The notes beneath the pieces were generated by a model. The model was not told the DNA's origin and ran no database searches. It saw only the letters and a program-made list of their open reading frames with translations. A stretch of 64,000 nucleotides of DNA from Escherichia coli. Its GTDB lineage: Bacteria; Pseudomonadota; Gammaproteobacteria; Enterobacterales; Enterobacteriaceae. The number at the start of each line of letters is the position of its first letter. Positions within the stretch are counted from its first letter, which is position 1. Shown here piece after piece: positions 5,665 to 22,995 of this stretch. Where the stretch lies: assembly GCF_051903065.1 (NCBI RefSeq), contig NZ_CP178438.1; one strand, 5' to 3'. Position numbers and translations under genes: made by a program.

Positions 5665-7487
5665 TCCCAGGCCTCCTGACTTTCCGTGTTGATGATTTTC
5701 AGACAGTGGTACGAATTGATGCTGGCGTAGAGAGCAAAAAAGTGCGAGAGCACTGTACCAAGAAGATAAATTTCACCTTCGCAGATAAATGGATCGGGAC
5801 GTATCCACAACGTGGTCGCCAGCCCGCGAACCGGCACGCCTTTAAACAACCTGTCAACAGGTTTGGTTTCGAGTTTTTCTATGGCATCCAGTTTCTGGCG
5901 CGACAGTCTGGCCCGCTGCGGATGGTGAGCGCCTGGCAGGTCGAAGGTCCGCAGGATCTGGATCAGTGTCTCCCTGTCCAGCAGGGAGAGGTAGTTCAGG
6001 TTCATCGCGGAAATCAGCGACCAGTGCATGTCGCCGTCCGTGACTGGCCAGAGCGGCTGCGTTGGGCGTGTGACATTATGAAATGAGGCCACCGCCGGGT
6101 TTTTGTTGACGGCCACGCAGATATCGCCGATATGCAGCCGAGCAGGGATCATACGGTTGGTACAGATTAATGACGTGGTGATCACATCATCATTAAACCG
6201 TGAGCTGTCCGGAATGCTGCCGTCCGCATGGACAAAGGCGATACTATGTTCAAGCCCGCGGTGAAACAGGGATGTTTTAGTCCGGTGATGCCAGTAAACG
6301 ACTTCCCGCTGGCGGCTGTACTCCATCTGGTGCTGGAAGCTTTCAAATTCGGGCCAGACACGCGCCTGGCTGCCAGGGTTGGATTCAGTACCTGAAACTT
6401 TGACTTTGCTGGTGACTGTGCTTATCTGAAAAATGTCATAAGCGTCGGGATGCCGGTGGCTGGCGCGCAGCGGGTATTCCGCTATCCGTCCATCAGGCCT
6501 GACGGGTTCCGCATAATGCGTAAACAGGTTAATGGCTGGCGTACAGTGCAGACGCAGTGAGTCCTGGCGTAGCTTGATGTCGGCAGGTAACGGGCGGTTA
6601 AAGTGCAGGCGCAGCGTAAACGCGCTGACCGGGAAATCGTCCGGTAGTGGCGCAACATCGCGCAGATGGAAAAAAAAGAAGGCTTCGGGATAGCAGAAAT
6701 ACTCCTGGAGTACCCGATAGCCGCTGTGGACATTTTTCGGCCACGGTAGCAGGGCGTCCTGGTTTTCAAATCCGGCGGCCTCCAGCCACAGATCCGGCAG
6801 CGGCAGGCGGTACTCTCCGGCAATCAGTTCCGCATCCATCAGGCATTCGCAAAACCACAGATAAAGCTGGTGTCGGGTATAATCGTCTTCATTACCCAGC
6901 CAGAACGTTATTTTGTTCAGGTCAAGCATGGCGGGGGAGACATTGTTATCTGCGGTAAAACTGATATCTATGATGCCTTCTTTCAGGCTGCTGGCGTTGC
7001 GGGTGTCGAGAATGCGCAGTGGTTGCAGCCAGATATCGCGCGCCAGCGTGAAATGACAGGCTACGGAAGAAACGATTTTATCATGATTGTCAGACAGCAC
7101 CTTCTGAGCAGCCAGGGCGGACTTTTCTGAGCGGCTTCTGATCAGTTCATTACGACAGACCTGAACAGGGACTTTTAACTGATCGGTTTTGGGTTCATAG
7201 GCAATAACCGTCATGGCCGGAACCGGGCGTAAATAGTTTGCCCACAGCATACGGATTAGCCCATGAGTGAATTCGGGGAATTCGTCCTCAAGTTTCTGGC
7301 GCAGGCTACCGGACATAAAGGCAAAGGCTTCCATCAGTCGCTCCACGTCCGGATCACCCTCTTTCTCGGCCAGAAAGTGGGCCAGATGTGGTTTTTCCTG
7401 CGCCAGCAGTTTGCCAAGCTGGCGAAGATAATCCAGCTCTTCGCGGTAGTAACGTTCTTCAAAAGCCACAGAGATCACTCCACACAA
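5628..7487 (-). CDS. tssF: T6SS baseplate protein TssF
   Basis: 619-aa ORF; ...EERYYREELDYLRQLGKLLAQEKPHLAHFL is the TssF N-terminal signature. The track start is a TTG, so the exact start (7487 vs a few codons inside) is uncertain. Confidence 0.85.
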   Translation of the reverse strand: MCGVISVAFEERYYREELDYLRQLGKLLAQEKPHLAHFLAEKEGDPDVERLMEAFAFMSGSLRQKLEDEFPEFTHGLIRMLWANYLRPVPAMTVIAYEPKTDQLKVPVQVCRNELIRSRSEKSALAAQKVLSDNHDKIVSSVACHFTLARDIWLQPLRILDTRNASSLKEGIIDISFTADNNVSPAMLDLNKITFWLGNEDDYTRHQLYLWFCECLMDAELIAGEYRLPLPDLWLEAAGFENQDALLPWPKNVHSGYRVLQEYFCYPEAFFFFHLRDVAPLPDDFPVSAFTLRLHFNRPLPADIKLRQDSLRLHCTPAINLFTHYAEPVRPDGRIAEYPLRASHRHPDAYDIFQISTVTSKVKVSGTESNPGSQARVWPEFESFQHQMEYSRQREVVYWHHRTKTSLFHRGLEHSIAFVHADGSIPDSSRFNDDVITTSLICTNRMIPARLHIGDICVAVNKNPAVASFHNVTRPTQPLWPVTDGDMHWSLISAMNLNYLSLLDRETLIQILRTFDLPGAHHPQRARLSRQKLDAIEKLETKPVDRLFKGVPVRGLATTLWIRPDPFICEGEIYLLGTVLSHFFALYASINSYHCLKIINTESQEAWEWQEKMGQHALI

Positions 7488-7900
7488 TAGCGTTGATGGT
7501 TGTCCAGCAAAATGTCAAATTCAAACACTCCCCTGGTTTCGCTGACATCGACCGTAGCCACAATATGAAAACGCAGTTCCACAGGGGCGTATTCATCCGG
7601 TGCAGCAGCCGTAACAACAACATCGGTAATACGAGGTTCGTAATGTAAAATGCACTGGCTAATGGACTTACGGATTTCTCGTCTGAAATCGCTGGAGGCC
7701 AGCGATTCATCATTTAAATCAGTAATCCCCAGCTCTGGTGAGCCATAACAACTGCCGGAGCGGGTATTCAGGACCTGTTGCAGGTTACGTCTGATGGAAC
7801 GTATCAGTGCTTCTTTTGGATTCTGGTATGAAGGCGGGTTGGCCGCCTCACGGATACGTTCAAAAAGACTGCTGGTTGGCCCTGAATCCCGTCTTTGCAT
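7475..7900 (-). CDS. tssE: T6SS baseplate protein TssE (gp25-like)
   Basis: 141-aa ORF between tssC and tssF; size and position fit gp25-like TssE. Confidence 0.85.
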   Translation of the reverse strand: MQRRDSGPTSSLFERIREAANPPSYQNPKEALIRSIRRNLQQVLNTRSGSCYGSPELGITDLNDESLASSDFRREIRKSISQCILHYEPRITDVVVTAAAPDEYAPVELRFHIVATVDVSETRGVFEFDILLDNHQRYCVE

Positions 7901-7904
7901 CTGA

Positions 7905-9389
7905 TTATTCCTTATCCAGTCGTCCGACCAGACTCAGGTCGAAACTGGCACCCATGTATTTAAAATGCGGTCTGACAGAAATCGCGACCTGGTACCAGCC
8001 TGGCTCACCATCCACATCAAGTACCTCGATCTTCGCCTGACGTAATGGCCGGTGGCTGCGGACTTCGGCAGGCGGATTCTCCTGGTCGGCCACATACTGG
8101 CGAATCCAGGTGTTCAGCTCGCGCTCCAGGTCACTGCGTTCTTTCCATGAGCCAAGCTGTTCGCGCTGAATTACCTTGATGTAATGCGCTAACCTACTGA
8201 TAAAAAATAAGTATGGCAGCTGGGTGCCGAGTTTATAGTTGGTCTCCGCAGCCTTGCCTTCGGGGGTTTTGGGGAATGTTTTGGGTTTCTGCACCGAGTT
8301 GGCCGAGAAAAAGCACGCATTATCAGACCCTTTACGCATGGTCAGTGTGATAAAGCCTTCTTCCGCCAGCTCATACTCTCTCCGGTCAGTTACCAACACT
8401 TCAGTCGGAATTTTTGCCTGCATTTGCCCCATGGATTCATACAGATGCACCGGGAGGTCTTTGACTGCGCCGCCGCTGGAAGGGCCAATGATATTGGGAC
8501 ACCAGCGATATTTAGCAAAACTTTCAGCCAGGTTCGCAGCTAGTAAAAACGAGGTGTTCCCCCACAAATAAGACTCGTGACTCTGGCTGACGTCTTCATG
8601 GTAACGGAAGGTCCTGGCTGGGTTCTCATCCGGCGAGTAAGGGTGACGCAGCAGGAACCGGGGGGCGGTCAGCCCCAGGTAGCGTGAATCTTCTGATTCA
8701 CGCAAGGCACGCCAGCGGGAATAGGCCGGGCCTTCAAAGATGGCTCCTGGTTCTTTAATCCCCGGTAACTCTGTCCATGAGTCCAGACCGAAAAATTCGG
8801 ATGATACTGATGAGAGGAACGGGCTGTGCGCCATCGCACTGACCTGGCTGATATATTTCAGCAACTTCATATCCGGCGTGGTGTTCTTAAAGGCAAAGTT
8901 GCCGATTACCGCCGCCACTGGCTCACCGCCAAATTGTCCGTAACCGCTTGAATATACATGTTTGTAATATGCAGACTGCGTGATTTCAGGTGCAAATTCG
9001 AAATCATCCAGCAGTTCTTCCTGAGTGACATTCAGGAAATGGACCTTGATGTTTTCCCGTGTATCCGCGCGTTCAACCAGCAGCTTCAGCGAGCGCAGCA
9101 GGGATTCCAGTTCCTGAAACTCCGGGGCATGAATAATGGCATCCATCTGCCTGCTGGTTCGGGCATCAATATCAGCAATCATGGCGTCAACGGCCAGGAT
9201 ATTGATAGGTTCAGCGCTACTGTCACCCTGTAACATGGCGGCAATAAAGGCGCTCACGCCCTGGCGGGTGATATCGTAGCTTTCTGATTTAGGCTGGACG
9301 CGTGTTTGCGCCATGATTTCATCAAGCAGAGATGGGGGCGCGGCGGTTTGCGACGCGCTGACGGGAGCAATATCTTCCTTTACTGACAT
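7905..9389 (-). CDS. tssC: T6SS contractile sheath large subunit TssC
   Basis: 494 aa, VipB/TssC-like; immediately downstream of tssB. Confidence 0.9.
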   Translation of the reverse strand: MSVKEDIAPVSASQTAAPPSLLDEIMAQTRVQPKSESYDITRQGVSAFIAAMLQGDSSAEPINILAVDAMIADIDARTSRQMDAIIHAPEFQELESLLRSLKLLVERADTRENIKVHFLNVTQEELLDDFEFAPEITQSAYYKHVYSSGYGQFGGEPVAAVIGNFAFKNTTPDMKLLKYISQVSAMAHSPFLSSVSSEFFGLDSWTELPGIKEPGAIFEGPAYSRWRALRESEDSRYLGLTAPRFLLRHPYSPDENPARTFRYHEDVSQSHESYLWGNTSFLLAANLAESFAKYRWCPNIIGPSSGGAVKDLPVHLYESMGQMQAKIPTEVLVTDRREYELAEEGFITLTMRKGSDNACFFSANSVQKPKTFPKTPEGKAAETNYKLGTQLPYLFFISRLAHYIKVIQREQLGSWKERSDLERELNTWIRQYVADQENPPAEVRSHRPLRQAKIEVLDVDGEPGWYQVAISVRPHFKYMGASFDLSLVGRLDKE

Positions 9390-9411
9390 ACTGAAAATCC
9401 TTCTGTGAAAA

Positions 9412-9915
9412 TTATTTCTGAACGGCGATACCCAGTTCTTGGATCAGCTGCTCGCGGCTGTCTTCGTTTTCCAGTAGCGCCTGAAGTTGTGCGCGGAAGG
9501 CCGGAATATTGCCTAGTGGAGACTTAAGTGCGACCAGAGCTTCACGCAATTCGAGAAGACGTTTTATTTCTGGTACCTGGCTGGCAATATGGTCCGGAGA
9601 AAGGTCATCCATAGATTTGACTTTCAGGTTGACGTACATTTGCTCATTGGGAGCGTCACTGAGTTCAGCCGGAACAACAAACTCCCGTTCAATGTCAGCT
9701 TCTGAAATGACTGCGTTGAGGTTATAGCGGTTGATAGCAATGGCAGTTCGCTCGTCCAACGGCGTGTTATCTGGTTTCCCTTTCAGATTGCCGGTGATCA
9801 ATAAATTCAGCGGCAATTCGATATCAGCAGCCACCCCATCAACTTTTGGTGTATACCGAACGCTGATTCTTTCTTTCGGCGCGACACTGCCGCCATTGTT
9901 GTTCATTTTGCTCAT
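9412..9915 (-). CDS. tssB: T6SS contractile sheath small subunit TssB
   Basis: 167 aa, VipA/TssB-like (RISVRYTPKVDGVAADIELPLNLLITGNL...). Confidence 0.9.
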   Translation of the reverse strand: MSKMNNNGGSVAPKERISVRYTPKVDGVAADIELPLNLLITGNLKGKPDNTPLDERTAIAINRYNLNAVISEADIEREFVVPAELSDAPNEQMYVNLKVKSMDDLSPDHIASQVPEIKRLLELREALVALKSPLGNIPAFRAQLQALLENEDSREQLIQELGIAVQK

Positions 9916-10493
9916 AAAAATGTTCCCGTTCAGGCCATGAGCACAGCATTTTCGTACTGCATAAAAATACCGAAGATACCGTTTCAGTGGCAGTTAGATA
10001 ATGTAACCTTCCTTCTGTTGTGATCAGTATTCTACTCATGAAATAAAATATTAAAAGAACTATTTATATTTTAGAAAGAGATGTATTCTTCCTTGCTAAT
10101 ATATTATAGTGAAATAAATTTTGGTATTTATAGACTTGGTGAATATGATTTTACGGTCAATAAAATACCATAATATATTGATTTATATGCATTTATTAAA
10201 TTGATTAATAAGTTTTATGTATGGTTTTATCAATTAATTAATTGCTGGCAATACATCATAAGGAATTCCTTTAAGGAATGTCTTAATTGCGTGCTGGAAC
10301 GATGGCGGAGTAAGTGTCGTAATAATTTGTTTTTGACGCGGCTGTGGATTTTTATGGGGGGGGAAGATACGTTATGGATAATTGTGCTGTTGAAGTTGAT
10401 ATATTTTTAGCTTATGTGACCGTGTTCTGAAATTGACTAAAAATATATTTAAACACCATAAAAGAGTTTTTCAGTAGGTGCTAATTACGTGTG

Positions 10494-10502
10494 CCTGTAA
10501 CT
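10494..10502. repeat. 9-bp target-site duplication CCTGTAACT (left copy) of the IS903 insertion
   Basis: Identical 9-mer directly abuts both IS ends (10494-10502 and 11560-11568). Confidence 0.85.
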
Positions 10503-11559
10503 GGCTTTGTTGAATAAATCGAACTTTTGCTGAGTTGAAGGATCAGATCACGTATCTTCCCGACAACGCAGACCGTTCCGTGGCAAAGCAAAAGTTCAAA
10601 ATCACCAACTGGCCCACCTACAATAAAGCCCTCATCAACCGTGGCTCCATAACTTTCTGGCTGGATGATGAAGCTATTCAGGCCTGGTATGAGTCAGCAA
10701 CACCTTCTTCACGAGGCAGACCTCAGCGCTATTCTGACCTTGCCATCACGACTGTGCTGGTCATTAAACGCGTATTCAGGCTGACCCTGCGCGCTGCGCA
10801 GGGCTTTATTGATTCCATTTTTTCTCTGATGAACGTTCCGCTACGCTGCCCGGATTACAGCTGTGTCAGCAGGCGGGCAAAGTCGGTTAATGTCAGTTTC
10901 AAAACGCCCACCCGGGGTGAAATCGCACACCTGGTAATTGATTCCACCGGGCTGAAGGTCTTCGGTGAAGGCGAGTGGAAAGTCAAAAAGCATGGCCAGG
11001 AACGCCGCCGTATCTGGCGTAAGCTGCATCTCGCCGTTGACAGTAAAACACATGAAATCATCTGCGCTGACCTGTCGCTGAACAACGTTACGGACTCAGA
11101 GGCCTTCCCCGGGTTAATCCGGCAAACCCACCGGAAAATCAGGTCAGCCGCCGCCGATGGCGCTTACGATACCCGGCTATGTCACGATGAACTGCGGCGT
11201 AAGAAAATCAGCGCGCTTATCCCTCCCCGAAAAGGTGCGGGTTACTGGCCCGGTGAATATGCAGACCGTAACCGTGCAGTGGCTAATCAGCGAATGACCG
11301 GGAGTAATGCGCGGTGGAAATGGACAACAGATTACAACCGTCGCTCGATAGCGGAAACGGCGATGTACCGGGTAAAACAGCTGTTCGGGGGTTCACTGAC
11401 ACTGCGTGACTACGATGGTCAGGTTGCAGAGGCTATGGCCCTGGTACGAGCGCTGAACAAAATGACGAAAGCAGGTATGCCTGAAAGCGTGCGTATTGCC
11501 TGAAAACACAACCCGCTACGGGGGAGACTTACCCGAAATCTGATTTATTCAACAAAGCC
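10503..11559 (+). mobile_element. IS903-type insertion sequence (IS5 family), about 1057 bp
   Basis: Terminal inverted repeats GGCTTTGTTGAATAAATC at 10503-10520 and its reverse complement at 11542-11559; internal transposase ORF; flanked by a 9-bp direct repeat. Confidence 0.9.
10535..11503 (+). CDS. IS903-group transposase
   Basis: 322-aa ORF (TTG start in the track; true start may be slightly internal); IS5/IS903-type transposase sequence. Confidence 0.85.
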   Translation: MKDQITYLPDNADRSVAKQKFKITNWPTYNKALINRGSITFWLDDEAIQAWYESATPSSRGRPQRYSDLAITTVLVIKRVFRLTLRAAQGFIDSIFSLMNVPLRCPDYSCVSRRAKSVNVSFKTPTRGEIAHLVIDSTGLKVFGEGEWKVKKHGQERRRIWRKLHLAVDSKTHEIICADLSLNNVTDSEAFPGLIRQTHRKIRSAAADGAYDTRLCHDELRRKKISALIPPRKGAGYWPGEYADRNRAVANQRMTGSNARWKWTTDYNRRSIAETAMYRVKQLFGGSLTLRDYDGQVAEAMALVRALNKMTKAGMPESVRIA

Positions 11560-11568
11560 CCTGTAACT
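11560..11568. repeat. 9-bp target-site duplication CCTGTAACT (right copy)
   Basis: See left copy. Confidence 0.85.
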
Positions 11569-11684
11569 CGAATAAAGAAAAGGGTGTGGTTCCTGATGTG
11601 AGCCGCATCACACTCTAACCCGTCGGGGATTAACGACGGGTTGTTCGTAAAACAGCAGTTGATAATTTCACAAGGAGTTCATAA

Positions 11685-12203
11685 ATTCCAACCCCATGTT
11701 ACATTTCAATTACAGGTCAGACCCAGGGGAACATCACTGCCGGTGCTTTCACCGCAGATTCTGTCGGCAATATCTACGTGCAGGGACACGAAGATGAAAT
11801 GCTGGTGCAGGAGTTTCTGCATAACGTTACTGTTCCAACCGATCCACAGTCTGGTCAACCTTCCGGGCAGCGCGCGCACAAACCGTTCATTTTCACCGTG
11901 GCGCTGAACAAAGCCGTTCCGCTGCTGTACAACGCGCTGGCCTCCGGTGAAATGCTGCCGAAAGTGGAGCTGCACTGGTGGCGTACTTCAGTTGAAGGCA
12001 AGCAGGAGCACTACTTCACCACACGTCTTACTGACGCGACGATTGTGGACATGAACCTGCACATGCCGCACTGCCAGGACCCTGCACAGCGTGAGTTTAC
12101 GCAATTGCTCGCAGTATCACTGGCATACCGTAAGGTTGAGTGGGAGCACATCAAATCCGGTACTTCTGGTGCCGATGACTGGCGTGCACCGCTGGAAGCA
12201 TAA
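11685..12203 (+). CDS. hcp: T6SS tube protein Hcp, apparent non-ATG (ATT) start
   Basis: Frame-0 translation IPTPCYISITGQTQGNITAGAFTADSVGNIYVQGHEDEML... follows a TAA stop at 11682-11684; AGGAG at 11673-11677 is 7 nt upstream of ATT 11685. The track called only the GTG at 11778. Confidence 0.75.
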   Translation: MPTPCYISITGQTQGNITAGAFTADSVGNIYVQGHEDEMLVQEFLHNVTVPTDPQSGQPSGQRAHKPFIFTVALNKAVPLLYNALASGEMLPKVELHWWRTSVEGKQEHYFTTRLTDATIVDMNLHMPHCQDPAQREFTQLLAVSLAYRKVEWEHIKSGTSGADDWRAPLEA

Positions 12204-12215
12204 ATCTGAGTCAAC

Positions 12216-12247
12216 AACATCCTGCCTTCGTGCAGGATGTTGTTTTT
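12216..12247 (+). terminator. Rho-independent terminator-like hairpin after hcp
   Basis: AACATCCTGC-cttcg-GCAGGATGTT followed by a T-run. Confidence 0.6.
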
Positions 12248-12423
12248 GTACGTGTAAAAAATGAGTGTCAGTAAGGAGTTACGCTTACATGAGGGAGATG
12301 GCGGATGCCGGAAACCCGGGCGGTAGCGTACCTGAAAATGTAAAGATGAGTGTAACGCTGCACTGGCACCCTTTGCTGCATGGTGAGAATCATTTGGTCC
12401 GTGAATAAATCAGGGAGGTCATT

Positions 12424-14823
12424 ATGTCCTTAAAAGGTCTGCGCTTTACGCTGGAGATTGACGGCCAGGAGCCGGACACCTTTGCAGTGGTGAATTTCAG
12501 GTTAATCCAGAACCAGTCTTATCCGTTTGTGATGAGTGTGGATGTTGCCAGCGACTCTTTTATGCAGACGGCGGAGATGCTGCTGGAGAAGAAGGCGACG
12601 CTGGCCATCTGGCAGGGCGCGGTGGCGCAGCGTTATGTCACCGGCGTGGTGGCGGGTTTTGGTATGCAGGAGAACAATGGCTGGCAGATGCGTTATCACC
12701 TGCGTATTGAGCCGCCGTTATGGCGGTGCGGGCTGCGGCAGAACTTCCGTATCTTCCAGCAGCAGGATATCCGGACGATATCGGCCACGTTACTGAACGA
12801 GAACGGCGTCACGGAGTGGACGCCGCTGTTTTATGAGGACCATCCGGCGCGGGAGTTCTGTGTGCAGTACGGGGAGTCGGACCTGGCGTTTCTGGCGCGG
12901 CTGTGGGCGGAGGAGGGAATTTTCTTCTTTGAGCGGTTTGCGGCGGACAGTCCGGAGCAGAAGCTGACGCTGTGCGACGATGTGGCGGGGCTGTCACAGG
13001 CGGGAGAGCTTCCGTTTAACCCGGACACATCGGCAGGAGCGGAGACAGAGTGTGTCAGTATGTTCCGTTATGAGGCGTATGTCCGCCCGTCGTCGGTGCA
13101 GAGCCAGGATTACACGTTTAAGGTGCCGGACTGGCCGGGGATGTATGAGCAGCAGGGTGAGAACCTGAACGGACAGCTGGCGCAGTATGAGATATTTGAT
13201 TATCCGGGAAGGTTCAAGGATGAACAGCACGGTAAGGATTTCACGCTGTACCAGATGGAGAGCCTGCGCAGTGATGCGGAAAAGGCCACAGGGCAGAGTA
13301 ATTCACCGAAGCTGTGGCCGGGAACGCGGTTTACGCTGACGGGGCATCCGCAGAAGATGCTGAACCGTGAATGGCAGGTGGTACAGAGCATTCTGTCAGG
13401 GGACCAGCCGCAGGCGCTGCACGGCAGCCAGGGGAGAGGAACCACGCTGGGAAATCAGTTAGAGGTGATACCGGCGGACCGGACGTGGCGTCCACGGCTG
13501 CAAAGCAAACCGAAGGTGGACGGGCCGCAGAGTGCCATTGTGACCGGGCCGAAGGGTGAGGAGATATTCTGCGACGAACATGGCCGGGTACGGGTGAAGT
13601 TCCACTGGGACCGTTATCACGGGATGACGGAGGCGAGTTCATGCTGGGTGCGGGTATCACAGGCGTGGGCGGGGCCGGGGTTTGGTAACCTGGCGATACC
13701 GCGGGTGGGTCAGGAGGTGATTGTTGACTTCCTGAACGGAGACCCGGACCAGCCGCTGGTCATGGGCCGGACGTACCATGAGGACAACCGTTCGCCGGGG
13801 AGCCTGCCGGGGACGAAGACGCAGATGACGATACGGTCGAAGACCTATAAAGGAAGCGGATTTAACGAGTTGCGCTTTGAGGACGCCACCAGTAATGAGC
13901 AGGTGTATATCCATGCGCAGAAGAACATGGATACGGAGGTGCTCAACGACCGGACAACGGATGTGAAACATGACCATACGGAAACCATCGGTAACGACCA
14001 GAAGATAACGGTGGTGAAGGGTCAGACGGTTCAGGTCGGTACAAAAAAAGAGGGGGGCCACGACCAGAGTATCACGGTGGCGAATGACCGGTGCATCACG
14101 GTACGTAATGACCAGACGCTGCAGGTGACGAATGACCGGACGGTGAGCGTGAGTCACGATGACGGTCTGTACGTAAAAAATGACCGAAAGGTGACGGTGA
14201 AAGGGAAGCAGGAGCATAAGACGACGGGTAACCACATCAGCCTGGTGGAGGGGAAGCACAGCCTGGAGGTGAAGGGGGACCTGGCGGAGAAGGTGAGTGG
14301 CGCGCTGGGGATAAAAGTGGACGGGGATATCGTGCTGGAGAGCAGCAGCCGGATAAGCCTGAAGGTGGGTGGCTCGTTTATCGTCATTCAGCCGGGCGGA
14401 GTGGATATTGCCGGGCCGAAGATAAACCTGAACGGTGGGGGCAGTGCGGGGACACCGGTGGGGACGATGCAGCCGGCGGTGCTGGAGGCTCCGGAGGATG
14501 AGAGCAGTGATGATGGCAGTGATGACTCCGGAGAGGATAGTGGCAATCCCGCAGGGAGTGACGGAGGAGGTGATGGCGGTGACGATGAAGATGATCCTGA
14601 AAAATATACCCTCCAGTTCCATTTTACGGACGATGACGGGATACCGTATTCAGAGACGCAGTATATTGCCTTTTTTGAGGATGGCACACAGACGCGTGGT
14701 GAAACAGACAGAGAGGGATATACAGAAATATTTTATACAGATACAGCACAGGAAATTAAAGTCCAATTGTTATTTTCGGATGCTTTTTATATTGAGCCGG
14801 AGGGGCATTATGGCAGGGAATAA
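12424..14823 (+). CDS. vgrG: T6SS spike protein VgrG with acidic linker and C-terminal extension domain
   Basis: 799 aa; gp27/gp5-like body, repetitive beta-helix (VKNDRKVTV...), acidic Asp/Glu/Ser-rich linker, then a ~65-aa C-terminal domain. Confidence 0.9.
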   Translation: MSLKGLRFTLEIDGQEPDTFAVVNFRLIQNQSYPFVMSVDVASDSFMQTAEMLLEKKATLAIWQGAVAQRYVTGVVAGFGMQENNGWQMRYHLRIEPPLWRCGLRQNFRIFQQQDIRTISATLLNENGVTEWTPLFYEDHPAREFCVQYGESDLAFLARLWAEEGIFFFERFAADSPEQKLTLCDDVAGLSQAGELPFNPDTSAGAETECVSMFRYEAYVRPSSVQSQDYTFKVPDWPGMYEQQGENLNGQLAQYEIFDYPGRFKDEQHGKDFTLYQMESLRSDAEKATGQSNSPKLWPGTRFTLTGHPQKMLNREWQVVQSILSGDQPQALHGSQGRGTTLGNQLEVIPADRTWRPRLQSKPKVDGPQSAIVTGPKGEEIFCDEHGRVRVKFHWDRYHGMTEASSCWVRVSQAWAGPGFGNLAIPRVGQEVIVDFLNGDPDQPLVMGRTYHEDNRSPGSLPGTKTQMTIRSKTYKGSGFNELRFEDATSNEQVYIHAQKNMDTEVLNDRTTDVKHDHTETIGNDQKITVVKGQTVQVGTKKEGGHDQSITVANDRCITVRNDQTLQVTNDRTVSVSHDDGLYVKNDRKVTVKGKQEHKTTGNHISLVEGKHSLEVKGDLAEKVSGALGIKVDGDIVLESSSRISLKVGGSFIVIQPGGVDIAGPKINLNGGGSAGTPVGTMQPAVLEAPEDESSDDGSDDSGEDSGNPAGSDGGGDGGDDEDDPEKYTLQFHFTDDDGIPYSETQYIAFFEDGTQTRGETDREGYTEIFYTDTAQEIKVQLLFSDAFYIEPEGHYGRE

Positions 14824-15613
14824 TAATACTAGTGGGACTTCACAACCCGAGTCGCAAGTATGTGTAGTACCGCAAAAAATTACAAATAAATTTAAAATAA
14901 TGATGAGTAAGGCTTGTAAAGCACAGAAAATGGTTTTATTGAAAAGAGCAGATGATATTATGTCATGGGAGGGGGAACAACAACGAGATTTTATTAAAGT
15001 TTTTGGCCTTAAAGGCGAGGACATTATAAAAATCAGAAAAGTTGGGGAAGATACTGGGAAACGAATGCAAGCGAGACTATTCATAATGGATGGCATCAGA
15101 CGAATAATGACGATTGCAAATGGTTTGACGATCGAAAGCTATAAAGATTATACGAACTGCAATGAATTTGCTGCTTTTATTAGTCCACATCTTGATCCTC
15201 CTTACATTGTAAATATCGGAGCGCATTTTGAATACAGACATGGTATAAAACAGTCGGTTACAGGTAGAGACTCTCATGTAAGTACACTTTGCCATGAAAT
15301 GTCCCATATATTTTGGTATTGGGGTGACAATCAAAAAGGTGGTATGTGGACTCAGGATTATACGGGTATTAATAAGTTCGCAACAAGTAATAAGGATGAA
15401 GTTAGCTATGAGAAACATGTTTCAGTGGCTAATGATCTGGTTACATTGCGTAAAGATCAGTTATTTGAGAATGCATATAATGTTGAAAGATATTTTTATA
15501 TAAAATTAAATGATGAAGATATTGAAGCTCAAGATGAGAATATGTTAGCAAAAAAAGTAGAGGATAAAATAAAAGAGATAGAAAAATGTTTTGATGAGTT
15601 GACGGGGAAATAA
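14810..15613 (+). CDS. Putative T6SS cargo effector, HExxH zinc-metallopeptidase-like
   Basis: ATG at 14810 overlaps the vgrG stop; AT-rich; HEMSH motif encoded at 15293-15307. The track's longer 14435 start lies inside vgrG and is rejected. Confidence 0.55.
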   Translation: MAGNNNTSGTSQPESQVCVVPQKITNKFKIMMSKACKAQKMVLLKRADDIMSWEGEQQRDFIKVFGLKGEDIIKIRKVGEDTGKRMQARLFIMDGIRRIMTIANGLTIESYKDYTNCNEFAAFISPHLDPPYIVNIGAHFEYRHGIKQSVTGRDSHVSTLCHEMSHIFWYWGDNQKGGMWTQDYTGINKFATSNKDEVSYEKHVSVANDLVTLRKDQLFENAYNVERYFYIKLNDEDIEAQDENMLAKKVEDKIKEIEKCFDELTGK

Positions 15614-15614
15614 G

Positions 15615-16364
15615 ATGAAGAGGTTGGCTTTCTATAATCTAAATTATGTTGTACTGATGGTTTTTTTTCTTTGTTTTTTGCCATTATCTATTGCAATTGC
15701 AATAGATAATGAGAATCTTTTTGTAAAAAAATACAGATTCGGTTTTGAACGAAGAAGTGACAATGGGAAACCAATTATTTATCTTAGCCATAATTTAGCG
15801 CCAGAGGAAAATATAAGTAATGAATTAACAAATGATGTTGTTGTTAAATTGGTGGTTAAGCCACATGCTGAAAATATTTTAGCTACTATAACTTTTTATA
15901 ACAGTAGTACTAAATCGTATTTTCTCCCCAGAATATATTATCCAAAGAACTTCCAAAAAGGAAATGGAGATGTATTTGATGCTTTGTGTGATGACGAATT
16001 CTTGATTACATCAGGAAATATTAGCTTAGACTATCTAGGAGGCTTTTGTCCCTTTGAGCTTGATTTGAATTTGAGCCGATGGGTGGAAATTACGGCAGGT
16101 AAAAAAATATCTTTTGATGTAAAATTGAATGATATGCATTCATTTCTCCCCAGTTTAAATAATTATCATATAAAAACATTAAACTACAAACTTGTTAGGA
16201 GAAAATGGTTTGTATTAAAATCAATTAATGAAACATTCCTCTCTATTTTGATGAAAAGATACTCATGTAATGAATATGATTTTAGAGCTATATCATTTAG
16301 TGGAGAGGGATGTGATAATTATGAATTTGATAAAAATACGTTTTTTTTGTTAATCAAATATTAG
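15615..16364 (+). CDS. Signal-peptide protein, candidate cognate immunity protein
   Basis: Start 1 nt after the effector stop; N-terminal hydrophobic signal (VVLMVFFLCFLPLSIAIA); AT-rich. Confidence 0.5.
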   Translation: MKRLAFYNLNYVVLMVFFLCFLPLSIAIAIDNENLFVKKYRFGFERRSDNGKPIIYLSHNLAPEENISNELTNDVVVKLVVKPHAENILATITFYNSSTKSYFLPRIYYPKNFQKGNGDVFDALCDDEFLITSGNISLDYLGGFCPFELDLNLSRWVEITAGKKISFDVKLNDMHSFLPSLNNYHIKTLNYKLVRRKWFVLKSINETFLSILMKRYSCNEYDFRAISFSGEGCDNYEFDKNTFFLLIKY

Positions 16365-16600
16365 ATAAAGATGATGAGCAACATTCTGTTCATATTAGGT
16401 CTAATGAATTTTCCATCAATATCGATGGAAGCTTGGTAAAGCAACCTTATTGATTAAAATGTATCGCAGGTTTTATTTTCTGTAATGCTGGTGCATGTGC
16501 GTAAATATTTCTTAAGAGCCGGAAACACCTCTTCCGCCTTTATCGACGATAAACCTACCGCCAGAACCGGTGATGCCATTGACTGCGGTGGCGTGGTTAA

Positions 16601-16941
16601 AGGTGGAGGGCGATGTGGTGCTGGAGAGCAGCAGCCGGATAAGCCTGAAGGTGGGCGGTTCGTTTGTGGTCATCCATTCAGGGGGCGTGGACATCGTCGG
16701 GCCGAAAATCAATCTCAATAGCGGCGGTAGTCCGGGAACGCCGGTGCCGACGCTGCAACCGGCGGTTCTGAAAGCGCTGGCAGATGATAAAAGTTTAGCG
16801 GCTGAGCAAAATGATAGTAATGCATCGTCCGATCAGAATGATAACAACGATGAGGGTGAGGAAGCGCCAGAAAAATCGGTGTGTAAGGAGTGCCTGAAAA
16901 GGGCGCAGGAAGCCGCCGCCGCTTTTGCGCCTCGTGGATAA
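16601..16941 (+). pseudogene. Orphan vgrG 3' remnant with a different C-terminal tail
   Basis: Nucleotide and protein similarity to vgrG 14310-14470 (VLESSSRISLKVGGSF.V.IQ/HSGGVDI.GPKINLN.GGS.GTPV), then a divergent acidic tail; no vgrG N-terminal body upstream. Confidence 0.7.
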
Positions 16942-16947
16942 GGGAGA

Positions 16948-17718
16948 ATGACGATGATAACAGTATCGCCACGCGCTACCGATCAAGACAAATATATTAT
17001 CTGGCTGAAGCAGGCTGAATCATTCTGTTCTGCCGCTGGTTTGGATTACATAGATGTGCTTGTTGACCAGGCTGGAACCGACCAACCTTTGCAAAATGAG
17101 ATACTTCATCTGTGGCCAGCCATTCACTGGTATGCCCTGTTTGAAGGAACGCCTGAAGCTGAGACGATGGAGTATTCCCCTGTAGTGTTACGCCTGTACT
17201 TTGCGCTCAGTAGCCATCGCAAATTTCTGGCACAACTGATGGCGTCATTTGCTGATACGCCGCGTCTTACTTTGTTGATATCCCCTCTTACATTCGACCT
17301 GCTGGGGCGGCATCTTCAGGTATTGTCACAGGTTCAGTGGGAAGAACAGACCGGATTGCTGCGTTACTATGATAATCGGGTGTTCCCTTTACTGTTCACA
17401 CATGTTTTGACTAACGAGCAGCAGGCGACATTTACTGATATTGCGTTGTTCTGGAGCTGGTTAGACCGTGATGGTGAGATTAACTGGAAATCAGGAAGTT
17501 TTTCACCAGAACGCAGGCTTACTGACAACCCGGAGATGAATCGGGTGGATGATGTACAGGTGGGATTGATGGGCTGTATCTGCGACGCTGAAGTCCTGAT
17601 GAAGGAGAAAGCAGTCAGTGAACTCAGTCAGGAAAGCTATTTTGCCCACTGTCTTGATATTGCTTTCAGAGCCAATGACGCGAAATATTTCGGAGCTTTG
17701 CGGGACTTCGAAGGATAA
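16948..17718 (+). CDS. Putative T6SS effector adaptor (DUF4123-like), low confidence on family
   Basis: 256-aa ORF between the vgrG remnant and the immunity/effector pair; position and size fit adaptor/chaperone genes. Start may be the third codon (16954). Confidence 0.45.
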   Translation: MTMITVSPRATDQDKYIIWLKQAESFCSAAGLDYIDVLVDQAGTDQPLQNEILHLWPAIHWYALFEGTPEAETMEYSPVVLRLYFALSSHRKFLAQLMASFADTPRLTLLISPLTFDLLGRHLQVLSQVQWEEQTGLLRYYDNRVFPLLFTHVLTNEQQATFTDIALFWSWLDRDGEINWKSGSFSPERRLTDNPEMNRVDDVQVGLMGCICDAEVLMKEKAVSELSQESYFAHCLDIAFRANDAKYFGALRDFEG

Positions 17719-18061
17719 TATTGTGGTGATGTACGGGGAGATTTATCTGTTTAAAAGTCCGTAGCTGTTAATATCAAGAGATAATCGTGAAATAAACGGA
17801 AAATCAAGCTCGACATGTAATGGTAGTATCCATCATGTTGCATTTGTGTTCGATCGTAATGTCAGTTCACTTGGCTGCAATATATTTTGCGTAATATCAT
17901 CAATGCTCTGTCGATATTCCAATGTGTGACAATCGAAAGATATGCATTTTATTTGCTTCTTTGTCAAAACTTTATTGTCGTAGAAACAATACCCATCAAT
18001 TAAAATCTCTCAAAGTAAAAGAACCAGCAACATGTCCAGCAAAATAAGGAAAAGTATCAGT

Positions 18062-18586
18062 ATGAGAGCGATTTTCAAATGTTATTCTCTAATGATTTTA
18101 TTTGCAGTATCAGGCTGTTCAATGGCAAAAAATAGCGGTGATTACACTGCTGTGGATATTAATGGGATAAATCATACGGATAAGGATATAAATTATATAC
18201 ACATCAATGGTTACGGCGGACCAAATATTGGTCCATTCGGAGACGGTGGAGGATATTGTTGCGTTATGCTGCCAGATAAGTGGCATTCTGGATTAAAAGC
18301 CCAGGTTGAATGGGAAATTACCCCAAATACAGTACCTCCGCCACCACTCTATAAGGATTGGGATAAATATCAGGCCTGGGAGAAAAAACTAAAAGAAAGT
18401 TACATTCAACATACCGCAATTGTTGATATCCCGGAATACGATGCTGAGCTTTGTGGCCTGACCGTTCATTTTCTAACGTGTAATCAGATTAAAGTGACAA
18501 CCGTCTGCCAGAAGTATGGCACACCGAATTATCCCATCAAAGAACCCCGCGAGATGAAGGAACCAGCAACATGTCCAGCGAAATAA
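18062..18586 (+). CDS. Lipoprotein, Tli-like candidate immunity for the adjacent lipase
   Basis: MRAIFKCYSLMILFAVSGC lipoprotein signal; AAGGA ~12 nt upstream. The track start at 18032 lies inside a duplicated 3'-end repeat and is rejected. Confidence 0.6.
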   Translation: MRAIFKCYSLMILFAVSGCSMAKNSGDYTAVDINGINHTDKDINYIHINGYGGPNIGPFGDGGGYCCVMLPDKWHSGLKAQVEWEITPNTVPPPPLYKDWDKYQAWEKKLKESYIQHTAIVDIPEYDAELCGLTVHFLTCNQIKVTTVCQKYGTPNYPIKEPREMKEPATCPAK

Positions 18587-18602: not shown

Positions 18603-20663
18603 GTGTTATGCCCCCCAGCGTTTCCTGAAAATGGGCGATTAATATTATCTGAAGCGCAGGTAAACGCGAACTACCTAAAACAAATCAATAAAACAGAAGA
18701 GCACAAAACCAACTGTAGTAAACAGGCTGGATTTAGAATTGGCTTTACGTGTAATCAAAGTCTGCATATTAGTCTGTTTTTTGATGGTACAAATAATAAT
18801 GAATATAATGACACTCCTGGACACCCAATCAATATTGCCAAACTGTTTCATACGACCTATCAGAACGCAGAAGAACAGGGATATTTTAACTACTATATAC
18901 CGGGTGTAGGCACACCATTTCCCAAGATAGGTGAAATGGATTACAGCAACAGCGGGCTGGAGTTCGCTACTGGTGGTGAAGATCGAATTAATTGGGCATT
19001 ATTACGCCTCGTGGATGCCCTGAGCTATTCCATTGACCCTTCCCATAAGCGACTGGATGATAATGTGGCAAAAGAGCACATTCCTCTTATGCGCGCTCCC
19101 TGGCCTATGACTGGTGAAGTGAATCGTCGCAATGTGATTAACCCCTACCTGGAAAAATTACAGGGACTGTTAGAGCAAGCCAGTCCGCGCCTGCTAAACG
19201 TAAAGCTGTTTATCTACGGATTTTCCCGTGGCGCAGCGGAAGCACGAACTTTTGTTAACTGGTTGACTCAGTTAGCTTGCCCGCAGGAGCAACAGGTGAT
19301 GCTGGCCGGGTTAGCTGTCAGTATTGAGTTTTTGGGGCTGCTGGATACCGTAGCTTCTGTGGGGGCGGCGCATGTTTTACCGGGCGCTGCCGGTCATATG
19401 GGATGGGCCGATAGTACTCAGCAACTCCCTGATGAGAGGCAGTTTCCCGGCCTGATTAAATGCTGCCGCCACTTCGTTGCCGCGCATGAGCAGCGGCTGT
19501 GCTTTCCGCTGGATTCAATCCGTCGTCCAGACGGAAATTATCCTTTAAATGCAGAGGAAATTATCTATCCGGGGATGCACTCTGATGTCGGTGGTGGCTA
19601 TCCCGTTCGCGATCAGGGGAAGTCCTGTGGTGACTCAGGCGAAATTCTTTCTCAGATAGCACTGCATGATATGTATCTTGCTGCATTTGATTCAGGAGCA
19701 CCACTTGCTGTTTATTCTAAATTTGTTACTCCATTAATAAAAGGTGTGTCGCCTCTGCGAATTATGAGTCCTTCTAGCGTAAAGGAATTTACGATTGCTA
19801 ATTCATTAACAAAACGCTTCAACATCTGGCGACAAACGCTGCTGAACACCACCTTGCAGGGTACAGAAGAAATGATTGATACGAGGGAAGGTTATCACTC
19901 CTATCAACTTGCCCAGGTTCTTGAAAGCGCAATTAGCGATCAGATCGGCTGGATCACCGCCTGGCGTATCGGTCGCTATGCGAATAACAGCCTTCTTGTG
20001 CAACCTTTTTATATTAAGGCGCCACAGCTGGATAAAGATGGACTTGATAAAGAGGCTAAAGCGCGTAAAGAACAAATGGAAAATATTGAAAAAGAGCGGG
20101 CGAACAAGCAGAAAGGGAATGGCACACTTGATGAAAGTAATCAGGGCATTCCTATCCTTGACCCAACCAATGCTCAGTATCAGTTGCGAGAGGCAGCCCG
20201 AGAATTTCAGAGCGATTATAAAGGATGGACGCGCGATATTAACGGCAGCGTCATGGAGAAAGCCATTCAGATTCTTGTGGATGTCATTCCTAAATATCCG
20301 GTGTATCTGATTAATGGCGATGATGAAGCAAAAGAATATCAGCAAATTAAGGCTATGGGAGACGGACTCTATCCACAATTTTTTATTGATTCACTGGGAA
20401 CGGGAACGCGTACTCAGCCCTGCGCTGAATTACTGGCTCTCTATGATGACCAGGTTCACGACTCCCGCGCCTGGTTTATGCAAAGTTCGCTGGGTGGACG
20501 CGAACCCTGGGGCGGTTATTTTCGCTACCGCATGATTTACTTCGGTGATGAGGCTAATAAAGAGCTGAAGCTAATCTCTGCAGATGGCAAAGTTGTTGGT
20601 GATCAGCCCACATCCAACCGGGTCATTTATTGGATGGAATCGAAAACGGTGAGCCGAGGTTAA
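18603..20663 (+). CDS. tle1: T6SS phospholipase effector, Tle1-like (DUF2235, GxSxG)
   Basis: 686 aa; LFFDGTNNN N-terminal core motif and GFSRGA (GxSxG) at 19217-19234. Start codon uncertain: GTG 18603, no in-frame ATG upstream. Confidence 0.7.
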   Translation: MLCPPAFPENGRLILSEAQVNANYLKQINKTEEHKTNCSKQAGFRIGFTCNQSLHISLFFDGTNNNEYNDTPGHPINIAKLFHTTYQNAEEQGYFNYYIPGVGTPFPKIGEMDYSNSGLEFATGGEDRINWALLRLVDALSYSIDPSHKRLDDNVAKEHIPLMRAPWPMTGEVNRRNVINPYLEKLQGLLEQASPRLLNVKLFIYGFSRGAAEARTFVNWLTQLACPQEQQVMLAGLAVSIEFLGLLDTVASVGAAHVLPGAAGHMGWADSTQQLPDERQFPGLIKCCRHFVAAHEQRLCFPLDSIRRPDGNYPLNAEEIIYPGMHSDVGGGYPVRDQGKSCGDSGEILSQIALHDMYLAAFDSGAPLAVYSKFVTPLIKGVSPLRIMSPSSVKEFTIANSLTKRFNIWRQTLLNTTLQGTEEMIDTREGYHSYQLAQVLESAISDQIGWITAWRIGRYANNSLLVQPFYIKAPQLDKDGLDKEAKARKEQMENIEKERANKQKGNGTLDESNQGIPILDPTNAQYQLREAAREFQSDYKGWTRDINGSVMEKAIQILVDVIPKYPVYLINGDDEAKEYQQIKAMGDGLYPQFFIDSLGTGTRTQPCAELLALYDDQVHDSRAWFMQSSLGGREPWGGYFRYRMIYFGDEANKELKLISADGKVVGDQPTSNRVIYWMESKTVSRG

Positions 20664-20762: not shown

Positions 20763-20920
20763 CACACTGTACTCCCAGGGAAAAATCACGTAATGCTGCT
20801 TTTTTTGTACTAAATAATTCGCATTTTATGTTCAATAATTGAGGTGTTCCTTATTACCTAAAGCTGTTTTTCATTGCTTATACATGATCAAATACTCATT
20901 GCATAATTAAGGGGGGCAAA

Positions 20921-21684
20921 ATGGAACTTAAAAAATTGATGGAACATATTTCTATTATCCCCGATTACAGGCAAGCCTGGAAAGTGGAACATAAATTGCC
21001 AGATATTCTATCTGTTAACTATTTGCGCCGTTATTTCTGGTGCATAATGCTGGGAAGATATAGAGGATTTGGGGAAACACATCCCGATTTTTTGAAGTGA
21101 TATGGTGATTTTGAAAATGGTATTCCTGTTCACGATATCATTGCCAGAGTTGTATCCTGTATCAGTCCTGAAAAATTTCATGAGTGCTTTATTAACTGGA
21201 TGCGTGACTGTCATTCTTCAGATGATAAAGACGTCATTACAATTGATGGAAAAACGCTCCGGCACTCTTATGATAAAAGTCGTCACAAGGGAGCAATTTA
21301 TGTCATTAAAATCCGTCTTCATATTGTTTGCATGTCTCTGATGAATTTATTGATTTTACGTTTGAATGGAAAGGGCTGAAGAAATTATGCATGGCAGCCT
21401 CATTTCGCTCAATAATAGCAGAACAAAAGAAAAATCCCGAAATGACGGTCAGATATTATAGCATTTCTGCTGATTTAACCGCAGAGAAGTTCGCCACAGC
21501 GAACCGAAATCACTGGCAAGTGGAGAATAAATTGCACTGGCATCTGGACGTGGTAATGAATAAAGACGACTTCAAAATAAGAAGAGGAAATGCAGCAGAA
21601 TTATTTTCAGGGATACCGAAGATCGCTATTAATATTTTAACGAAAGATAAGATAATCAAGGCAGGGGCAAGATGTAAGATGTGA
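20921..21684 (+). pseudogene. ISAs1-family (H-repeat-associated) transposase pseudogene with internal deletion and stops
   Basis: [26 protein letters not shown]... N-terminus, in-frame stop, and C-terminal part (...[11 protein letters not shown]...[11 protein letters not shown]...) in three broken frames. Confidence 0.75.
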
Positions 21685-21912
21685 AAAGCAGCTGCGGACA
21701 GAGACTACCTCGCGTCAGTCCTTGCGGGGGCGGGCTTTCGTAATCTTGTTCTGCAAGGGATGATAAAAAGTGCAACTTTATTCCACGCAGCTATTTAGAC
21801 AGCGTACAGTAAACAAACGAAAGTTGTTATTTCAATGGTCAGGGCAAGAGCATGAAGTGTTTACTACACACTATGCTCTTGTCCTGGAGTCAGGTCTTGT
21901 TTGGAGGGATAA

Positions 21913-22416
21913 ATGGTAGATATTGTCGAGGCCGATAAAACGGATATTTATTTCATTCAGGAGAGTGTTTATGGTAAAATCGGGCTGCCAGCTTTTGGTA
22001 ATACAATAGGACCATCTGCACAGCAGGTTGTTAAAAAGGTATTCGCTGTCGTTAAAGAACGAGATAAGACACATGCAAAACAGAGATTATTGTTGGAATA
22101 TAATGGTAACAAACTCTGGATGAATGCTATTGATGGCAGTGAAGCTATCCTACCAATAGAATTTTCTAAGCGATACGAACTTTCATTATTCAATACTACT
22201 AATTTTGGAGAAGATCCTTTTCCTGATGTTAATTTATATAATAATATGAAATCAAGTTTTTTTGTAAGGTTTGGTGGAACATCCCATCCCGAGGCTTGGG
22301 CTATTTATAATGCAAGTACGAAAGAGGTTAAATATATAGAAACTGCAAGAGAAATTGATAAAATATTCAGTGATTTTAACTTGAGTGGTACATTGCCAAT
22401 TCACATTGGTCAATGA
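21913..22416 (+). CDS. Hypothetical protein (AT-rich, unknown function)
   Basis: 167-aa ORF with GGAGGG RBS; no family recognised. Confidence 0.5.
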   Translation: MVDIVEADKTDIYFIQESVYGKIGLPAFGNTIGPSAQQVVKKVFAVVKERDKTHAKQRLLLEYNGNKLWMNAIDGSEAILPIEFSKRYELSLFNTTNFGEDPFPDVNLYNNMKSSFFVRFGGTSHPEAWAIYNASTKEVKYIETAREIDKIFSDFNLSGTLPIHIGQ

Positions 22417-22482
22417 TTTTTTAAATTGTGTGATTAAATAATTGAACATTAGTGATGATTTATAGCATCATTATTCTATAAC

Positions 22483-22995
22483 ATGAATAAACGGATTGAA
22501 TGTGTTATGTTAAAAATGAGTTTATACGTAATAATATTGTTATTTTCCTTTCAGATTAGTGCAGCCATTACTAGCAAGGAAAGTGAGGTTGTTTCACCAT
22601 TATTAATGGATGTTAATTCTTCACTAACAATGCAAAATATTTCTGAATTATCCACATCATCGGAACCATCGCAACAGGGGGTATTTCCTGTAATATGTAC
22701 TCGACTTCATCCTGGCTCCGTAATGAAACGCCAGTTATTAACCGGCTGGGGGCCTGTTTTTATAATTGGTGATGATCCTTTTTCTCTGCGCTGGATGAGT
22801 GAACATCTGGAGATCCTTAAATCGCTAAATGCCCTTGGTTTGGTTGTTAATGTTGAATCAGTAGAACGAATGGAGGTATTACAGCAGCGGGCTGATGGGT
22901 TATTGTTATTGCCAGTTATCTGCGATAATTTCGTGCAAACTCTGCAATTAAATGCTTATCCGGTATTAATCACAGAGATGGAAATATCACAATGA
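22483..22995 (+). CDS. Hypothetical secreted protein (signal peptide)
   Basis: 170-aa ORF; N-terminal hydrophobic signal MSLYVIILLFSFQISAAIT; AT-rich. Confidence 0.5.
   Translation: MNKRIECVMLKMSLYVIILLFSFQISAAITSKESEVVSPLLMDVNSSLTMQNISELSTSSEPSQQGVFPVICTRLHPGSVMKRQLLTGWGPVFIIGDDPFSLRWMSEHLEILKSLNALGLVVNVESVERMEVLQQRADGLLLLPVICDNFVQTLQLNAYPVLITEMEISQ

Follow-up and report, generated by a model that had tools for sequence, protein, structure and literature searches.

An experimentally tested relative of the locus analyzed here comes from Escherichia coli PAR, in which a VgrG, a 'DUF2345' protein, M35-PAR (AKO63_2955), and AKO63_2956 were reported to be encoded together in 2023 (PMC10673891). 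According to that paper, export of M35-PAR to the periplasm from pET22b is lethal to E. coli, growth is restored by co-expression of AKO63_2956, and the 'DUF2345' protein binds both VgrG and M35-PAR. The same paper equates M35-PAR with the metallopeptidase domain of Pseudomonas aeruginosa VgrG2b, which was characterized by Wood et al. as a thermolysin-like gluzincin having Glu983 as its third zinc ligand (PMC6899460). Another related protein is VgrG1 of enteroaggregative E. coli (EAEC), whose TTR domain is reported to help bind the effector Tle1 (as cited in PMC10673891). The present analysis concerns a stretch of 64,000 nucleotides of E. coli (NCBI RefSeq assembly GCF_051903065.1, contig NZ_CP178438.1), hereafter called the window, and in particular three adjoining genes of its type VI secretion system (T6SS): vgrG, open reading frame 2 (ORF2), and ORF3.

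These three genes very probably constitute a three-part T6SS cargo module in the T6SS-1 cluster of E. coli, composed of a TTR-tailed VgrG, an aspzincin toxin (ORF2), and a periplasmic immunity protein (ORF3). In the proposed mechanism, the acidic flexible linker of VgrG leads to a TTR-like domain that would dock the ORF2 product; carried by the spike, the peptidase would enter an adjacent Gram-negative bacterium and, once in its periplasm, cleave a substrate of the envelope, and the exported ORF3 protein would protect the producer and its kin by binding and blocking the enzyme in their own periplasm, as homology to the tested PAR pair suggests. The cassette would have replaced the 3' end of a vgrG serving a Tla1/Tli1a/Tle1 module, leaving a vgrG remnant. 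The genes are tightly packed: the ORF2 ATG lies 14 nucleotides (nt) inside vgrG and is preceded by a GGAGGGG Shine-Dalgarno sequence at 14799-14805, and ORF3 (15615) begins one base past the ORF2 stop. The G+C content of the vgrG core is 0.588; the tail domain has 0.406, ORF2 0.343, and ORF3 0.292, compared with 0.494 for the whole window. A preliminary description, made from the sequence alone, had reported an ATG at 14810 overlapping the vgrG stop and opening a 267-residue frame with a HEMSH motif, a drop in G+C, and a VgrG ending in an acidic linker and a small extra domain; the coordinates proved exact, the drop from the vgrG core to ORF3 is real, and the linker and domain are delimited to residues 691-724 and 725-799 (approximately 75 amino acids), respectively. 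It had also placed a 249-residue signal-peptide ORF one nucleotide downstream, of which the start and the hydrophobic N-terminus stand, but the 249 residues are the truncated product of a 279-residue gene.

By its sequence and its predicted structure, ORF2 is assigned to the aspzincins as a divergent M35-type metallopeptidase. The preliminary description had placed the effector in no characterised family, which does not hold, since the protein falls among the aspzincins of the M35 superfamily, is named as such in public databases, and has a 27%-identical relative that was tested. The RefSeq annotation pipeline PGAP calls the family 'M35 family metalloendopeptidase', and its relatives are labelled 'Lysine-specific metallo-endopeptidase domain-containing' in UniProt; given these existing names and the tested relative, the window pair adds to a known kind of toxin. 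Conservation of HExxH, suggested earlier as a check, was confirmed in 25 homologues down to 26% identity, in which C161, H162, E163, S165, and H166 are invariant, and the motif is therefore no chance occurrence. Invariant in the same 25 members are D183, Y223, N224, E226, Y228, and F229. D183 is found in the context GGMGTxD in most members and GGMWTQD in ORF2, with T181 at least 90% conserved, while the block from Y223 to F229 corresponds to a NAYNxExYF C-terminal helix. The proposed zinc ligands are His162, His166, and Asp183, with Glu163 as the putative catalytic residue; Asp183 is suggested as the third ligand because of its invariance, its motif context, and the fold. For comparison, the textbook M35 signature is HEXXH together with GTXDXXYG (PMC12924839), the zinc ligands of the Grifola frondosa peptidyl-Lys metalloendopeptidase (GfMEP) are H117, H121, and D130 (PMC3268031), and the literature on the residues of Lys-specific enzymes lists the zinc ligands and a second-shell Asp154.

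A profile built from diverse members of the ORF2 family matches AsaP1 (E 6.7e-6) and GfMEP (E 4.8e-5), as well as proteins with a precomputed PF14521 annotation (E 5.5e-31). The zincin fold that had been anticipated for the effector was recovered by structure prediction as an aspzincin fold: an AlphaFold model from 48 sequences reached a mean predicted local distance difference test (pLDDT) of 90.5 and a predicted template modelling score (pTM) of 0.88, and Foldseek agrees on the fold. AsaP1 is among the best matches of ORF2 in both structure and sequence. Another model, computed from eight close homologues, had a pLDDT of 62.8 with the catalytic core below 50 and was not used. Foldseek searches of AFDB50 also matched VgrGs that include an M35-like domain in the same chain (E 1e-4 and 2.9e-5, probability 1.00), such as the 969-residue A0A222ZE11 of Cronobacter sakazakii; these fusions, known from these matches alone, place the ORF2 peptidase fold in a T6SS spike context, with the difference that the domain is fused there and is a separate cargo protein here. 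Single-sequence searches with ORF2 and ORF3 found nothing in NCBIfam, PADLOC, or the PDB (phmmer). Structure and sequence together give firm grounds for calling this presumed E. coli T6SS cargo an aspzincin.

The ORF2 family is small, with 49 representatives among 1.84 billion proteins, the longest of them not exceeding 306 amino acids. It was found at nine loci in approximately 100,000 species-representative genomes, all of them from Enterobacterales, and in 35 clusters of a collection of 5.8 billion proteins, the named ones belonging to E. coli, Salmonella, Kluyvera, and Buttiauxella. A literature search, which did not cover Ma et al. 2018 (on vgrG islands, and possibly listing the module), returned no paper joining an aspzincin with type VI secretion.

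Classical M35 enzymes, namely, GfMEP (1g12), AsaP1 (2x3a), and deuterolysin (1eb6), resemble ORF2 in that HExxH is followed by an Asp within GTxD and that a C-terminal helix is conserved, but share only 15-19% sequence identity with it. Unlike them, ORF2 has no signal peptide or propeptide, does not conserve the Tyr-Gly of the signature, has a longer spacer, and, by analogy with its tested relative, would reach its target on a T6SS spike and have an immunity protein as partner.

The equivalence with VgrG2b drawn in PMC10673891 was considered for ORF2 and rejected, as the two belong to different peptidase families, aspzincin and gluzincin. ORF2 showed neither a thermolysin-like fold nor a Glu as third ligand nor similarity to 6H56. 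P. aeruginosa VgrG2b with PA0261 (6H56; PMC6899460) does follow the same logic, having a VgrG, a TTR-like domain, a periplasm-acting HExxH peptidase, and a periplasmic immunity protein, and the TTR parts are weakly similar (the tail-domain profile of the window VgrG matches residues 24-61 of the 6h56 construct at E 0.05). However, the VgrG2b peptidase is fused to VgrG whereas ORF2 is a separate cargo gene, and PA0261-type immunity proteins are lipoproteins in Enterobacteriaceae, whereas ORF3 has no lipobox. The delivery logic is thus shared between the VgrG2b and ORF2 families, and their peptidases come from different families.

ORF2 aligns with M35-PAR over its full length at 27.5% identity (E 6.6e-29), and the ORF3 product, once its frame is restored, aligns with AKO63_2956 at 31% identity (E 2.4e-30). 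The earlier interpretation of ORF2 and ORF3 as an effector/immunity pair is therefore supported, because both are homologous to a tested, though distant, pair, consisting of a periplasm-toxic peptidase and its neutralising partner. The PAR locus lies in a T6SS-2 cluster, has the same gene order as the window, and its VgrG ends in the same TTR-like domain. In RefSeq, the PAR vgrG is frameshifted; its C-terminal half, with the terminal small domain included, was therefore taken in the paper as a separate 'DUF2345' gene. The toxin and immunity protein families are the same at both loci, but M35-PAR belongs to a different clade with low identity to ORF2 and has no counterpart of the extra C-terminal helix of the window protein (residues ~235-265), and the PAR module sits on a different VgrG class (T6SS-2) without the acidic linker. 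The PAR genome carries two tandem vgrG-aspzincin-immunity modules in T6SS-2 (positions 4771-13430 of NZ_CP012379.1 2961000-3010000), and the immunity gene of the first, upstream module is also split.

The window VgrG matches Phage_GPD, Phage_base_V, and two copies of Gp5_trimer_C in Pfam, with no match past residue ~672. The 60 residues before the tail domain include 14 Asp or Glu and 22 Gly or Ser, and the same type of linker is present in window-class VgrGs of other loci. The tail domain (residues 725-799) has no Pfam family match; its profile matches the TTR domain of EAEC VgrG1 (6sjl/6sk0 residues 781-825) weakly, at E 1.1e-3, and the domain is accordingly described here as a putative TTR-type adaptor. 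In EAEC, too, a C-terminal TTR-like VgrG domain is reported to act as an internal adaptor for a cargo encoded downstream, as proposed for the window, but the protein carried there is a phospholipase and the two TTR sequences are no more than distant relatives. The suggestion that the small VgrG domain loads the cargo, made in the preliminary description, gains support from this similarity, from co-occurrence, and from co-divergence; the reported binding of M35-PAR by the C-terminal part of the PAR VgrG, in which the TTR domain lies, is further indirect support. Wherever a full-length or nearly full-length member of the ORF2 family could be recognised (13 of 13 loci), a VgrG with a TTR tail is encoded first, then the peptidase, and then an ORF3 homologue. 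These loci span two very different VgrG core classes and unrelated chromosomal sites, including the T6SS-1 cluster (window), a PAAR-vgrG island by yncG/ansP, cobB-potD (Buttiauxella), and T6SS-2 (PAR). In a comparison of 11 modules, the identities of the peptidases follow those of the TTR domains (Mantel rho 0.39, p 0.002) and show no correlation with those of the adjacent VgrG beta-helix (rho 0.07, p 0.26); given so few modules, which are moreover related in sequence, this is supportive and not decisive. The module of B. izardii (L014) combines a window-class helix with a TTR domain and peptidase of the other clade. As part of the explanation favoured here, it is quite likely that the TTR tail, peptidase, and immunity gene form a single cassette of low G+C that enters different vgrG genes by recombination.

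Two further loci carry related sequences. Phytobacter ursingii has, downstream of its aspzincin module, a second vgrG with a more distant TTR-like tail (L015, 8075-10642; E 8.7e-10 against the tail profile), which presumably pairs with a different cargo. In Chimaeribacter coloradensis (L018, 4619-5234), only degraded aspzincin fragments were found, with no adjoining TTR-tailed vgrG or immunity homologue, and this looks like a decayed cassette.

The N-terminus of ORF3 is basic and then hydrophobic, and all nine aligned homologues have a hydrophobic signal sequence, judged by inspection, and lack a lipobox. Of the cysteines, C125 and C145 are invariant among the homologues, and C218 and C233 are nearly so. 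Because of these signal sequences and conserved cysteines, ORF3 is predicted to be exported and is probably disulfide-bonded. Neither profile nor single-sequence searches identified a relative of ORF3 in Pfam, NCBIfam, PADLOC, or the PDB. The gene has a T run of eight in the window, 23CRST027, and FDAARGOS_943 and of nine in A30, PapRG-04-4, and 33F4, where the coding sequence is 840 nt long (279 amino acids). The eight-T form cuts ORF3 from 279 to 249 amino acids and removes a conserved 34-residue tail with the invariant I270 and G272, which is readable in the next frame up to 16453. Since it occurs in three of the six genomes sampled, the shorter run reflects either genuine slippage or an error in assembling the homopolymer.

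Several points weigh against the module as proposed. The Tyr-Gly half of GTxDxxYG is not conserved and the positions after D183 vary in the ORF2 family, the spacing between the second His and the Asp is 17 residues in ORF2 compared with nine in GfMEP, and ORF2 alone matches Pfam Aspzincin_M35 weakly (independent E-value 0.0022, 18.9 bits). No catalytic-site mutant of M35-PAR is described in the excerpts of PMC10673891, and the experiments concern the M35-PAR pair, so that the function of the window allele, only 27% (toxin) and 31% (immunity) identical, would follow by analogy. In addition, the module may be weakly expressed, decaying, or not deployed in this strain, because of the ORF3 frameshift, the ATT start of hcp, and an IS903B element upstream. 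The loss of Tyr-Gly is taken from the alignments to mark a divergent subfamily and would not exclude an aspzincin fold; among the 25 family members, two match the Pfam family at E <= 0.001 and 15 at E <= 0.1.

That the cassette is what it looks like, yet is not deployed in this strain, being decayed or silenced with its immunity gene, hcp start, and promoter region damaged, is the strongest of the alternatives, though we consider it unlikely. The eight-T frameshift deprives ORF3 of its conserved tail with I270 and G272, and immunity homologues are also split in the first PAR module and in B. agrestis. The start codon of hcp is ATT in the window and 23CRST027 in place of the ATG of A30 (G to T at 11687), which is expected to lower Hcp translation sharply. 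IS903B occupies approximately 10480-11558 (transposase 10535-11503) between the divergent tssB and hcp, ends approximately 126 bp upstream of hcp, and is missing from A30 and 33F4; its presence may interfere with T6SS operon promoters. The nearly identical genome of 23CRST027 has a frameshifted vgrG. On the other side, vgrG, the peptidase gene, and 244 of the 279 immunity codons are intact in the window, the differing T counts may be errors of assembly, low-level translation can start from ATT, and selection would act against a toxin lacking functional immunity in a system that still fired. In the otherwise 99.94%-identical genome of 23CRST027, two indels turn vgrG (L001, 7027-9424) into a pseudogene, and in the window vgrG is intact; the indels could be real mutations or assembly errors.

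A peptidase aimed at eukaryotic host proteins, in the manner of the secreted AsaP1 of Aeromonas salmonicida, with ORF3 not acting as an immunity protein, would agree with the host-directed virulence role of AsaP1 and of fungal M35 enzymes (PMC12924839) and with the place of AsaP1 among the best structural and sequence matches of ORF2. This is very unlikely, as an exported partner is strictly linked to the peptidase at 13 of 13 loci, the homologue from PAR is lethal to E. coli in the periplasm and is countered by its partner (PMC10673891), and the adjoining Tle1 module of the same T6SS-1 is of an antibacterial type.

It is also highly improbable that ORF3 is an accessory protein or chaperone for loading the peptidase in place of an immunity protein. 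Such a role would be compatible with the lack of a recognisable family for ORF3 in Pfam, NCBIfam, and the PDB and with the weak correlation between peptidase and ORF3 identities (Mantel rho 0.20, p 0.12). However, the signal sequence and cysteines put ORF3 in the periplasm, away from the cytoplasmic loading of the spike, the PAR homologue of ORF3 relieves toxicity (PMC10673891), and the cytoplasmic chaperones at the window locus look like Tla1/DUF4123. That ORF2 is a secreted zincophore, scavenging zinc like the M35-related Pra1 of Candida, and not a protease is hardly credible, given that the catalytic Glu163 of HExxH is invariant in the family and that a homologue is toxic and comes with an immunity protein (PMC10673891), for which a scavenger would have no use.

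The module of TTR-tailed VgrG, aspzincin, and immunity protein is embedded in the T6SS-1 cluster of the E. coli chromosome, where tssC and tssB on the minus strand (7905-9915) are followed by the plus-strand hcp-vgrG unit and then by yafV/ivy/fadE. The features are collected in Table 1.

Table 1. Features of the T6SS-1 effector region of the window (positions counted from the first nucleotide of the window).
Feature	Position	Strand	Remarks
hcp, first gene of the hcp-vgrG-effector unit	11685-12203	+	172 aa; RefSeq annotation of near-identical locus
vgrG/tssI spike, intact	12424-14823	+	799 aa; TIGR03361 E 5e-180
Acidic Gly/Ser/Asp/Glu-rich VgrG linker (aa 691-724)	14494-14595	+	read from sequence
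TTR-like C-terminal adaptor domain of VgrG (aa 725-799), proposed peptidase docking site	14596-14820	+	
ORF2, predicted aspzincin (M35-like) cargo effector, 267 aa, no signal peptide	14810-15613	+	
HEMSH motif of ORF2 (H162, E163, H166)	15293-15307	+	residues 162-166
Asp183 of ORF2, proposed third zinc ligand	15356-15358	+	invariance; GTxD half of M35 signature
ORF3, putative immunity gene as read in the window	15615-16364	+	249 aa, C-terminally truncated
Predicted ORF3 signal sequence MKRLAFYNLNYVVLMVFFLCFLPLSIAIA	15615-15701	+	by inspection
T8 homopolymer, ORF3 frameshift site	16341-16348	+	T9 in intact alleles
Out-of-frame ORF3 remainder, conserved tail ...VNQILDKDDEQHSVHIRSNEFSINIDGSLVKQPY	16349-16453	+	alternative-frame translation
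3' remnant of displaced resident vgrG	16595-16941	+	PGAP: 'VgrG, missing N-terminus'
tla1 chaperone	16948-17718	+	NCBIfam Tla1 E 3e-65
tli1a immunity	18032-18586	+	NCBIfam Tli1a E 8.5e-63
Tle1-like phospholipase	18603-20663	+	RefSeq annotation

The vgrG remnant is 78% identical in DNA to vgrG 14309-14501, and in strain MINF_1D, an intact vgrG stands directly upstream of tla1. The remnant appears to be the tail that served the Tla1/Tli1a/Tle1 module, and the simplest reading of these sequences is that one recombination within the conserved vgrG end brought in the new tail, peptidase, and immunity gene and severed the old tail. The Tle1 module would now be without a dedicated spike within the window, as no other intact vgrG ORF is present there. 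Farther along, 3' of tle1 and before the yafV side, the annotation of a near-identical locus shows a broken ISAs1-family transposase and small hypothetical genes at 20900-22500, which is a further sign of mobile-element traffic at the cluster edge.

The arrangement of the window is found in 12 of 5,426 complete E. coli genomes, while a 57%-identical peptidase paralogue in the yncG/ansP island is found in 641 of them (12%), including EAEC 042. In that strain, the paralogous module (EC042_RS08385-08395) is 57% identical to the window in its peptidase, 41% in its immunity protein, and 91% in its VgrG, has the same VgrG linker and TTR tail, and its peptidase gene overlaps the vgrG stop; it differs from the window in forming an orphan PAAR-vgrG island outside the main T6SS-1 cluster.

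The new elements at this locus are the separation of its peptidase from the VgrG2b gluzincin, the frameshift of ORF3 from nine to eight T, and the displaced VgrG tail that would have served Tle1. The first of these corrects the conflation in the literature of the M35-PAR family with the P. aeruginosa VgrG2b metallopeptidase, and the TTR tail, peptidase, and immunity gene are defined as a portable unit. We tentatively raise the possibility that the Enterobacterales-only clade is a separate class of T6SS toxins, made up of aspzincins unrelated to the VgrG2b gluzincins, which would cut an envelope protein or linkage targeted by no known T6SS effector and would be carried by a self-contained TTR-peptidase-immunity cassette swapping between VgrG classes. 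The traits behind this idea are the missing Tyr-Gly after the Asp, the longer spacer, the NAYNxExYF helix, and the orphan immunity family. Finding the periplasmic substrate of the ORF2 family would explain a weapon that is widespread in the competition of gut E. coli, since 12% of the complete genomes of this species, among them that of the model strain EAEC 042, have the 57%-identical paralogue. The stranded Tle1 module, the frameshifted ORF3, the ATT-start hcp, and IS903B point to effector cassettes that displace one another and then decay.

Scans of the region for promoters and terminators gave counts at chance level. A perfect 30-nt palindrome (CATTATCTATTGCAA/TTGCAATAGATAATG) lies at 15682-15711, within the signal-peptide codons of ORF3, and the RNA around it folds at -19.7 kcal/mol (z = -4.9 against shuffles). 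The E. coli 042-type and Buttiauxella cassettes do not conserve the palindrome at this position, and in PAR, at a comparable offset, there is only an imperfect one.

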